A stretch of DNA of 48,288 bases from a virus. Lineage: Duplodnaviria; Heunggongvirae; Uroviricota; Caudoviricetes. Position 1 is the first letter of the stretch. Each line of letters starts with the position of its first letter. Positions 24,001 to 27,000 of the stretch are shown in pieces. The stretch is taken from IMG/VR virus record IMGVR_UViG_2923307698_000006; one strand, 5' to 3'. A program made the position numbers.

Positions 24001-27000
24001 CCACCAGAAGACGCCCCATCGCTTTCACCGGATCGGGAAGACCATCCTCCATATATTCAATACCATGAGATATCACCGCGGGCGGAGGCATCTCCGGATT
24101 GTTTTCGTCCGGCTGTGGTATTGCAGCCGCCTCACGGCGACGGGGTTTATCCTCCTGCTCTGATTTTTTCTGCCGGTAAACAGAAACCTCATCCACCTCC
24201 ACCGTTTCGCACTGTTTACGGGCTATAAACGCGAGCACCTCCGGATCTTTTGCCAGCTGCGAGCCTTTAACCCTGGCGGTCTTCGCCGAATAACCGGCGG
24301 CAATGGCTGACGCTGTTTTGTTTTTCCCGGACATGAGCGCCAGCGCAAATTTTCGTTTTTGCGTTGTCAGCACAGCCTCCTCCCGGGTCCATAACGCACT
24401 CAGCCGGGTATGGTTCAGCCCATTTTTCCCGGCGTCTCATGCCGCAAATGTTAACTGCTGCCTGGTTAACATTTGCTGAAAAAGCCAGTTAACATTTTTT
24501 TCGCACAACAAACTGAATAATAAAGATAAAAACCGAAAAAATGCCCGGGCAGCCAGTTAACATGTTAACTGGCCTGAAACGGGAATTTTTTCTCTGCATG
24601 AGACGTGGGGCGGTGTCCGGAGCGATCGTTTTTCACGCCGGATGATACCCCCCCCCCGCTCGGGTTACAGTCCGATGATGTCGTCCGCTCTGCCACTACC
24701 TCCGGACACCTCCGGCAGCGTCGGGTCCGGCATACCACCCGCCGCTTCACGAGCAGACTTTTGTCGATGGCATTCGGTACAGAGCGTCCAGAGATTCGTC
24801 TCCTCATTACCACCACCGAACTGAAGTGCAATTCGGTGATCGAGTTCACTGTCACAGAGGTCAACCACACGACCACAGAGACAGCACTGCCCGGCATCCC
24901 TGAGCCAGATATGACGCTTGAGGGAAACACGTGCACTGCCACTGACACGACGCTGTTCACCCTTCAGAATATTCACCCGTCGGGTATTCAGTGTTTTGAT
25001 TCTGCTCTGGAGTGTACGAAGCTCAGCCATGTAAAATCCCCGTCATATGGCAATCAGTAAAGGAAATAAATATGTCATCGAAAAACCGGACCCGCAGAAC
25101 CACAACCCGCAATATCCGATTTCCAAACCAGATGATTGAACAAATTAACATCGCTCTTGACCAGAAAGGTTCAGAAAATTTTTCTGCGTGGGTCATTGAA
25201 TCTTGCCGCCGGGAGCTGGCAGCAGACATAAAATATGCCCGTCAGTTGACTATAAAAAAGAATGATACACAGTATGCTCTGCGATGGCTGTTCATATAAC
25301 TATTTCTTTATATTGCTGAATTTATAAAAACTCACAGACATTAGCTGTATTAATTCCGAATTGAAATAATCAGCCATATAGAATAAGAATAAAGCATAAC
25401 AATAATAATCTTCTACCCAATCAGTACATTACTGCTGTGACTCCAACACGGCAGTTTTTTTATTGAACAGATTCCAGTTTCTTCCACCATCGCACCGGAC
25501 GGGCGACCATGAGGGGAGAACGCCGCGCTCCGTTTACGCGGTAAACCCCGGTGTGTATCGTTTTTGATTATCCCCGCACACTCTCGCAGAGGAGTCTCCC
25601 TGTCGGGCTGCGGTCTCTGTTAATGCAGGAATACGGCGACAATACCGTGCATGGATAATAAGGTCGCTCAACACACTGGCTGTAATTCAGCGGATACCAT
25701 TCGGCATTTATCAGTATTCATCACACACTCAACGGTGAATTCTTCATGCGTGGCATTCACTTCATATGTTCGTGAATAACATTCAGTGCATTTACCTCTG
25801 AACACCTCTTCAAGCAGAACACGGCCATGTTGCAAAACACGGAACGGAATTGTTCCCTGAAAAGGTTTTACCGTTACCTGCAATTTCTTCATACATCCTC
25901 CGGATAATAAAAAGCCTGCTTAGTACACTGAGTGCGGATATAGTCCTGTGCCCCTTCCAGTTGCTTCTGCATCGTCATCAGCCGCTCTCTGAGGGTGAAA
26001 TAATCCCGTGTAACGGTGTCTGCCAGTTGGGGGCCGGTTGCATTATCCACGCGGGCGGTGCCGGTGGCTTCACGCACGGGACCTGGACAGGTGGCGTTGA
26101 TCCGCAGGCTGCGGTGACCAGCGGCAACGTCAGCGCGAAGAGTTTCATTTTCAGCTCTCGCATCGGCTAATTCCCTCGAGTATCTGGCATCAAGTGCAGC
26201 AACATCACGCTGGCGCTGCTGCATATCAGTAATGGTTGCATTTGCCAGCTCCAGCTCACTGACTTTTTTATCGCGCTGCTCTTTGTAGGTTATGGCGTTA
26301 TCACGGTAATGATTCAGCCCCAGACTAAGCGCACCACAGGCCACCAGCAGGGCAATGATGACCACGCACAGTACGCGGTTCATTTCACCACCAGCGTATC
26401 TGACCGATGAAATAACCGGAGGCCATAATCACAAACACCAGCCAGATAAGGATGAACTTCCAGGTGGATAATTTTTCAGCCATCACTCGAATCTCCCGAA
26501 TCAGTTTGCTAAAATCAAACACACTTTCTCCTTTGACTTTTCCGGAGTCAGGAAACACAAAACCCCGCTTGCAGCCAACAAATGGGGTTTTTACTTTTAT
26601 TCACTTAGTTTTTGTCAGTTCGCAGGATTTCGTGTTATCCGTCCGTGTGAGCAAACCGCATTTTTCAGCAAAATATTCTGCTTATCTGTCGATTCCCCAG
26701 CACGCCAGCGCACTCTCCTGGTCGCGACGGGATACCTGACCGTAACAGTTATTTGAGCGAATACGGCAGTCTCTGCCACCGTCCTTAATCCACCAGCGAA
26801 TCGCCTCACACGCTCCCCTGCGATCACCTGCATTAATTCGTCTGTAAAACGTCGACGGGAAACATTTACCGGGACCAATGTTGTACGGACAGAATGACGC
26901 GATCCCCGCTTTCTGGGGTTCGGTCAGTGGCACTCTGATGTTTTTCTCCACCCATGCCAGCGCCTTATCACGCTCAATGGCGTTAACCCGGTCGCATTTT

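Follow-up and report, generated by a model that had tools for sequence, protein, structure and literature searches.

A predicted cos region with a repeat-bearing cosB in a Shiga toxin-converting lambdoid prophage

A stretch of 48,288 nucleotides from a tailed virus of the class Caudoviricetes (IMG/VR record IMGVR_UViG_2923307698_000006; the whole stretch is called the window below) contains a gap of 291 bp (24374-24664) with an HNH endonuclease gene on one side and terS, the gene of the small terminase, on the other. The gap holds repeats with a GTTAAC core, a perfect palindrome and a homopolymer of ten C (a G-run on the minus strand), and raises the question of what these elements do between two packaging genes. 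We consider it probable that the interval is the complete cos of a Shiga toxin (Stx)-converting lambdoid prophage with HK97-style packaging by HNH, TerS and the large terminase TerL, the repeats forming a complex cosB read by TerS. A cos with TerS-binding repeats is of a textbook kind, and the feature is in this sense ordinary and expected. For one phage of this lineage, Lys8385Vzw, the cos position has been published before; for the repeats, their arrangement and the G-run we found no description in the searchable literature, full-text searches with the motif strings included. Searchable papers on the Lys8385Vzw lineage mention neither these elements nor a role for them, and no mention of the G-run was found in searchable papers on HK97.

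The predicted cut site and the G-run

Lys8385Vzw, an Stx1 phage (MT225100), has 3' cohesive ends according to PhageTerm, with the cos CGCCCCCCCT at the genome end (PMC7946995). Its record ends in ...GGACACCGCCCCCCCT and restarts with CTCACGCAGAGAAAAAATTCCCG, the left end beginning CTCACGCAGAG. The minus strand of the window reads ...GGACACCGCCCCACGT CTCATGCAGAGAAAAAATTCCCG; the ends of Lys8385Vzw align to 24603-24612 and to 24602 onward, which makes window positions 24603-24612 the homologous overhang. The predicted cohesive end, cosN, would thus lie on the minus strand at 24603-24612 and carry the 10-nt 3' overhang CGCCCCACGT, the counterpart of CGCCCCCCCT in Lys8385Vzw and of CGCCGCCAAA in HK97. 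We infer from this homology that staggered nicks would fall between 24613 and 24612 and between 24603 and 24602, and packaging would proceed toward lower coordinates, into terS. In HK97, the 10-nt 3' overhang of which is experimentally established (PMC11331095), a G9 run is followed by 32 nt and then by the last 10 nt, CGCCGCCAAA, at the right end, and terS lies 50 nt into the left end. As the ends of both phages align to the window, the predicted cut falls inside the studied interval. The sequence-only reading had described the interval as cos-like, and the end alignment with Lys8385Vzw together with the HK97-matching layout bears this out.

The sequences that flank the predicted cut are conserved beyond Escherichia coli. 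On the minus strand, a cos-core spacer (24613-24647) that ends in GGACAC right before the overhang is recognizable in alignments, and its GGACACCGC is nearly invariant across genera. On the other side of the overhang, the left-end core CTCATGCAGAGAAAAAATTCCC (24581-24602, minus strand), which includes an A6 tract at 24586-24591, is found in phages of at least six genera and partly in satellites. The cos core as a whole is conserved in HNH-TerS-TerL prophages of Klebsiella, Enterobacter, Serratia, Hafnia, Yokenella, Kosakonia and Citrobacter. A DNA pattern of the cos core with 16 specified bases returned mostly chance matches in G+C-rich genomes, eight of 120 loci being real cos cores.

The overhangs of the relatives read CGCGCCCCCT, CGCCCCCCGT, CGCCCCCCCT and a few others. 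The first bases of one IMG/VR contig, L185 (positions 1-50), are TCTCACGCAGAG, which places its start 1 nt away from where the left end of Lys8385Vzw was mapped; this may reflect either a true end of the DNA molecule or a break in the assembly at the C/G run. The whole repeat array is flanked by an inverted repeat of 10 bp, GCATGAGACG (24596-24605) and CGTCTCATGC (24433-24442), which is perfect and has one arm abutting the predicted cut. It was considered as a second half of cosN and rejected: it is perfect only in the variant of the window, its arms vary independently in the relatives, and it is probably due to chance.

The C10 run had been noted from the sequence at 24648-24657, and it is there. 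Read on the minus strand as G10, it begins 8 nt past the stop codon of the HNH gene and ends 35 nt ahead of the overhang, is intergenic, and has a counterpart at the same position in all relatives examined. Its length ranges from 7 to 11 in 14 E. coli copies and from 5 to 11, with a mode of 7-8, in 112 IMG/VR loci. Runs of 6-9 G occur in prophages of Klebsiella, Enterobacter, Serratia, Hafnia, Yokenella, Kosakonia, Citrobacter and Acinetobacter, and also in satellites; Acinetobacter pragensis (L076) has a G6 run with the same GGACACCGCC core, and the right end of HK97 (L006) has G9. A phase-variable homopolymer or contingency tract can be dismissed: the length does vary from 5 to 11, but the run is intergenic and conserved across genera. 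Its presence in every relative examined marks it as an element of the cos core that is conserved but may vary in length within limits, and not as a gene switch. These data suggest that a G-run some tens of nucleotides before the cut is a widespread, uncharacterised element of HK97-style cos. The side of the cut on which it lies is packaged last, which is the position of cosQ in lambda (PMC4669245). Judging from position and conservation, the run might be read by the shared cutting machinery or might act at termination in the way of cosQ.

The GTTAAC repeat array

Four GTTAAC-core repeats and a perfect palindrome of 20 bp had been proposed for the interval. Sequence and motif searches confirm the repeats but bring their number to five, a copy CTGGTTAACAT having been overlooked; the palindrome is indeed perfect, and measures 22 bp rather than 20 (24552-24573). 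The 11-mer CCAGTTAACAT is found exactly at 24485-24495 (plus strand), 24553-24563 (plus) and 24562-24572 (minus). The palindrome reads GCCAGTTAACA followed by TGTTAACTGGC, spans +30 to +51 relative to the predicted cut and contains a pair of GTTAAC cores spaced 8 bp apart. The fifth copy, CTGGTTAACAT, lies at 24463-24473 (plus) with two mismatches and forms an inverted pair with GCAGTTAACAT at 24448-24458 (minus), which has one. In a position weight matrix built on the five cos copies these two score 19.6 and 20.6 bits, respectively, and the five together 19.6-25.0 bits; the GTTAAC cores start at 24450, 24465, 24488, 24556 and 24564.

On the terS side, the repeats thus extend from +30 to +155 relative to the predicted cut, arranged as a proximal palindromic pair, an AT-rich spacer (24499-24547; 33% G+C, with T/A tracts) and three distal copies, of which the last two are the inverted pair. 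A lambda-type complex cosB is characterized by several repeats of 10-16 bp, all within approximately 150 bp and to the terS side of the cut, and five such copies are present here. We propose the 22-bp palindrome as the proximal, R3-like TerS site; the spacer is a possible intrinsic bend.

The clustering is not a matter of composition. A search of the whole window for the 11-mer, the check that the sequence-only reading had called for, gave eight matches with at most one mismatch against a mean of 0.79 in shuffled sequence, and none of 100 shuffles reached eight. GTTAAC itself occurs five times in 125 bp and 12 times in the remaining 48 kb (Poisson P approximately 2e-10, or approximately 1e-7 after correction for position).

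Four of the eight matches lie outside cos, against 0.79 expected for the window as a whole. This excess could mean that the repeats bind a protein other than TerS, a host nucleoid protein or a phage regulator, which would also act near 36688 and 43315. Two distant matches had in fact been taken as a hint of a shared DNA-binding protein. The first lies at 36688-36698, as had been described, and is exact; the second lies at 43315-43325, not at 43311-43321, and has one mismatch. It belongs to a double GTTAAC with the same 8-bp spacing as the palindrome (43317/43325). Their scores of 13.8 and 15.6 bits are well below those of the cos copies, and their surroundings point elsewhere. The site at 36688-36698 falls inside an Rfam match to sok/hok (36581-36755, minus strand), where the RNA model assigns it to one arm of a variable stem. 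The site at 43315-43325 lies between DicF (43160-43211) and dicB, in a spacer common to phages with unrelated packaging modules. This spacer (43312-43335) shows the two GTTAAC cores 8 bp apart (TTGTTAACTGGTTAACG) and then a short hairpin just upstream of dicB. Phage mEp460_ev081, with a lambda-type Nu1/A terminase, carries both far sites with identical local sequence; homologues of this TerS, HNH and TerL, the cos core and the palindrome were looked for in it and not found. The far sites therefore travel with their own modules and not with the packaging module, the proposed link to a shared protein fails, and on sequence grounds the distant matches are unrelated to the cos repeats. Nor does the interval 24374-24664 contain a match to the consensus of integration host factor (IHF), WATCARNNNNTTR. 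Binding of a non-TerS protein is thus very improbable.

The palindrome could also act as RNA. With its flanks it might be a signal in the late transcript, whether as an intrinsic terminator, as an attenuator or as a control of translation upstream of terS. An imperfect palindrome of approximately 58 bp (24535-24592) surrounds the 22-bp one, with arms GAAAAAATGCCCG and CGGGAATTTTTTC and a T-rich run after it on the minus strand. On that strand it folds as a long imperfect hairpin with an A-tract/U-tract base followed by a U-rich run, a weak terminator-like match is present at 24548-24533, and in phages of other genera the corresponding site overlaps the ribosome-binding region and start codon of terS. 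However, the folding energy is ordinary (z = -1.68; eight of 200 shuffles fold as well), terminator-like matches are at chance level (one against 0.9 expected), and an RNA signal leaves unexplained both the three distal repeats and the direct AAAAGTTACAC repeats of the satellites described below. An RNA signal as the explanation of the palindrome is therefore improbable, although an RNA hairpin and TerS binding may coexist. A sigma-70-like match on the plus strand is made of two of the repeats, is antisense to the late genes and is not considered meaningful.

The array is retained throughout the E. coli lineage. All full-length IMG/VR relatives of this lineage have the distal trio of GTTAAC cores at fixed offsets. 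The repeat at 24485-24495 keeps its offset in 109 of 109 full-length IMG/VR relatives in the right orientation, to which three read in reverse can be added. Of the untruncated IMG/VR loci that have the 18-bp palindrome core, 118 of 118 have the cos core next to it; in most relatives the palindrome reads GGCAG..., with 18 bp perfectly paired. L194 is the E. coli variant that diverges most, and in it the cores are identical at 30 of 30 positions and the rest of cosB at 86 of 102, a modest signal; as the palindrome served as the search key, this signal is weaker than it appears.

TerS and its counterparts in other phages and in satellites

Pfam Terminase_2 was the sole match of TerS in a Pfam scan, with no match to the gpNu1 family. 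Sequence searches against PDB gave only weak matches (E 0.19-0.73), and the N-terminal domain could be assigned only by comparing folds. Residues 1-56 were modelled by AlphaFold with pLDDT >90, the remainder of the model being of low confidence. The best match of the N-terminal fold is the DNA-binding domain of SF6 TerS, 4zc3 (target TM 0.84, rmsd 1.6 A), with 2cmp also found; the next matches are the small terminases of SF6, PaP3 and NV1. As modelled, residues 1-56 are an N-terminal helix-turn-helix DNA-binding domain of the SF6 type. No similarity to HK97 gp1, which has no Pfam match, was detectable (BLASTP E=1.3), and the HK97 site at +15 to +29 is for this reason not simply transferable. 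A protein scan with TerS of a collection holding one genome per species gave no relative; the E. coli genome of that collection evidently lacks this TerS.

The TerS homologues obtained by protein search fall into two N-terminal classes. Class 1, with the N-terminus MLT.QKRKFALALMSG...KGSQLAKDPEV, comprises the protein of the window and those of HNH-TerS-TerL prophages of other genera. In the latter, the distance from the cut to the start of terS is 36 nt, and just one GT(A/T)AACATGTTAAC site, overlapping the ATG, is found at the offset of the window palindrome, with no array. This near-palindrome, approximately 36 nt after the cut, overlaps the spacer of the terS ribosome-binding site and the start, where ATG TTA ACA encodes MLT; loci with it at the terS start are L013, L016, L017, L018, L026, L027, L042, L050 and L080. 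In the E. coli lineage there are approximately 200 extra bp at the terS start, and terS begins GTG CTG ACA, which still encodes MLT. The first 50 residues of the other-genus proteins are 72-82% identical to those of the window TerS, and the C-terminal part 32-42%.

Class 2, with the N-terminus MA.T..K.RFADA...KGWQL..DP.VKKYL, comes from satellite-like loci on E. coli contigs fetched via the TerS homologues P0058 and P0053 (L011:1372-1500, L012 and L015:1215-1500). In L011 and L012 the order is primase, small open reading frames, TerS and a capsid-like protein; in L015, AlpA precedes TerS. These loci keep the G-run and the core GGACACCGC.CCCC.TCTCAT, and AAAAGTTACAC repeats replace GTTAAC, two in L011 and five to six in L015, whose cos region and cosB align with those of the window, the AT-rich spacer included. 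Their TerS is 54-62% identical to that of the window in the N-terminal domain and 54-63% in the C-terminal part. Compared with the TerS of the other-genus phages, that of the satellites is thus nearer to the E. coli phage protein in the C-terminal part, where contacts with TerL are expected, and more distant from it in the N-terminal part, which is expected to touch DNA. The three loci may be satellites of this phage lineage, of the type of phage-inducible chromosomal islands (PICI).

The repeat motif thus tracks the N-terminal domain of TerS while the cut site stays constant, as a TerS-specific cosB predicts. The repeats had been put forward as candidate TerS sites from the sequence; their cosB position, the helix-turn-helix domain of TerS and the co-variation of motif and N-terminal domain support this by comparison, short of proof, and we regard TerS recognition of the repeats as likely.

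The array could instead be a relic. It would then consist of functionless duplications of the terS start (…AACATGTTAACAG…) brought by the insertion of approximately 200 bp found only in the E. coli lineage, and TerS would read the conserved core close to the cut, as it does in HK97. Relatives of other genera have one site, at the terS ATG, and no array, which fits this reading, as does the HK97 precedent, where TerS binds +15 to +29 with an A-tract; a conserved A-tract is found here at +12 to +17. Against it, the five cores are retained at fixed offsets in every full-length relative examined, and in L194 they are unchanged where the rest of cosB has diverged. In the satellites, moreover, an array built on another motif occupies this place and goes with a different N-terminal domain of TerS. 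The window TerS has no detectable similarity to HK97 gp1. We consider a functionless array unlikely.

Several points nevertheless weigh against the cos and cosB interpretation preferred here. The position of the cut is transferred to this phage by homology, and the overhang CGCCCCACGT of the window has an A at 24606 that occurs in none of approximately 125 relatives (112 IMG/VR and 13 other copies). The segment 24430-24600 is nearly invariant in the E. coli lineage (14 copies; 90 distinct IMG/VR copies), so that conservation barely separates repeats from spacers. The interval has no IHF consensus. The co-variation of motif and TerS involves only two specificity classes, and the single site of the other genera overlaps the terS start codon (ATG TTA ACA), so its conservation could partly be coding or translational. 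Finally, the conserved A-tract at +12 to +17 could be the primary TerS site instead of the repeats, as in HK97.

With these points taken into account, the interval can be pictured as follows. The five repeats, a proximal palindrome and a distal trio around an AT-rich, probably bent spacer, would form a complex cosB like that of lambda. The N-terminal helix-turn-helix domains of an oligomeric TerS would bind them and position TerL and HNH on cosN, which TerL is expected to cut jointly with HNH.

Genomic setting, known packaging systems and meaning for the lineage

The late genes of the window are on the minus strand. The HNH endonuclease gene (24665-25030, minus strand; Pfam PF01844, E=7.5e-7) is annotated as such in relatives, is the final gene ahead of cos and is the positional counterpart of HK97 gp74. 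On the other side lie terS (23810-24373, minus; Pfam PF03592, Terminase_2, E=1.6e-8) and terL (22152-23813, minus; Pfam PF03354 and PF20441), the latter encoding the large terminase with ATPase and nuclease. With the open reading frames and their Pfam matches placed in this way, the gene context given for the interval from the sequence, between the HNH gene and TerS, was right. A small open reading frame with a DUF3950 domain (E=3e-17) occupies 25072-25299 on the plus strand, whereas the late genes are on the minus strand; it separates the lysis genes from HNH and is conserved at this position in relatives L007, L008 and L009.

Among phage records the region matches Stx2_EH1846 best, and it is 95-97% identical to many records of Stx1- and Stx2-converting phages, such as BP-4795, 2851, 1717 and YYZ-2008. 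Of 5426 complete E. coli genomes, 1243 (23%) contain the cos region, with up to seven copies in a genome. Besides sok/hok and DicF, Rfam matches above the gathering score are STnc490 (14259-14382), AgvB (anti-GcvB; 30121-30182) and STnc100 (30184-30376), a set of small RNAs typical of the load of a lambdoid prophage of enterohaemorrhagic E. coli type.

In lambda, cosB has three R sites for TerS separated by a bend, and a contrast between complex and simple cosB is known (PMC4669245). The order in lambda cos (cosQ-cosN-cosB, with R3/I1/R2/R1) is the same as in the window: a conserved element comes first, then the cut, then short repeats of mixed orientation with a bendable spacer, which end shortly ahead of terS. 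In both, TerS has an N-terminal helix-turn-helix, which is predicted here to read the repeats (PMC4669245, PMC6092414). The complex and simple cosB of lambda, 21 and Monarch on the one hand and N15 on the other find a parallel in the present relatives, where the E. coli lineage has five sites and Klebsiella-type phages have one. There are also clear differences. The overhangs of lambda are 12-nt 5' ends, whereas 10-nt 3' ends are predicted here; the module of the window includes an HNH protein, and its TerS belongs to Pfam Terminase_2 (the SF6 type) and not to the Nu1 family. In place of an IHF consensus, the window has an AT-rich spacer with A/T tracts, and five copies with a palindromic proximal pair stand against three. 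On this analysis, the arrangement of the repeats would work like lambda cosB, yet lies outside that family in TerS family, overhang polarity and IHF.

The likeness to HK97 is of another kind. The two share the order HNH-terS-terL, a 10-nt overhang with CGCC at its start and a G-run approximately 32-35 nt ahead of it, an A/T tract a short way into the left end, and terS after cos. Unlike the window, HK97 has one 15-bp site (+15 to +29) that threads the TerS ring and no GTTAAC repeats, and its terS begins 50 nt after the cut compared with approximately 230 nt after the predicted cut here. The phage is of HK97 type in its cut site and gene order, but not in its TerS or in the site that this TerS is likely to read.

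The small terminase G1P of SF6/SPP1 binds repeated boxes that flank the cut in bent DNA. G1P and the TerS described here share the fold of the N-terminal domain and the Pfam family, but SPP1 and SF6 are headful (pac) packagers, while this phage is predicted to make defined cohesive ends. Among the closest known systems are Lys8385Vzw and the many Stx1 and Stx2 prophages of its lineage, such as BP-4795, 2851, 1717 and YYZ-2008, the cos regions of which are 94-98% identical to that of the window and have all five repeats. The published work on Lys8385Vzw gives the 10-nt end only, and the window has another overhang variant and a longer G-run.

For the satellites, a precedent is EcCICFT073, a PICI that, with lambda or phi80, keeps the cosN of the helper and has a different cosB (PMC6092414). 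Similarly, L011, L012 and L015 keep the cos core of the family with different repeats downstream; they differ in encoding their own TerS homologue and not Rpp, and in being related to the HK97-style family with 3' cos ends. These satellites, with the same cut site and a swapped repeat motif and TerS N-terminal domain, are the most interesting by-product of the analysis and lie outside the window.

The lineage to which this phage belongs carries many Stx1 and Stx2 toxin genes. Knowledge of the sequences that direct its packaging predicts which prophages and satellites are co-mobilised, helps in reading phage ends in sequencing data, and aids the engineering of cos transduction. Two repeat motifs paired with two TerS N-terminal domains at one cut site also offer a cheap experimental system for the specificity of small terminases.

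A wider and more speculative scenario, which we hold only tentatively, is that phages of the E. coli lineage expanded one TerS site to a five-site cosB, and that satellites of the same host retargeted the array (GTTAAC to GTTACAC, with a changed helix-turn-helix in TerS) while keeping the cut site of the helper and a helper-like C-terminus of TerS; the G-run would then be an undescribed, cosQ-like termination signal shared by cos phages of the HK97 style. If true, this would be a natural swap of specificity in a packaging arms race, and it would provide matched pairs of TerS and repeats for working out how small terminases of the Terminase_2 type read DNA.

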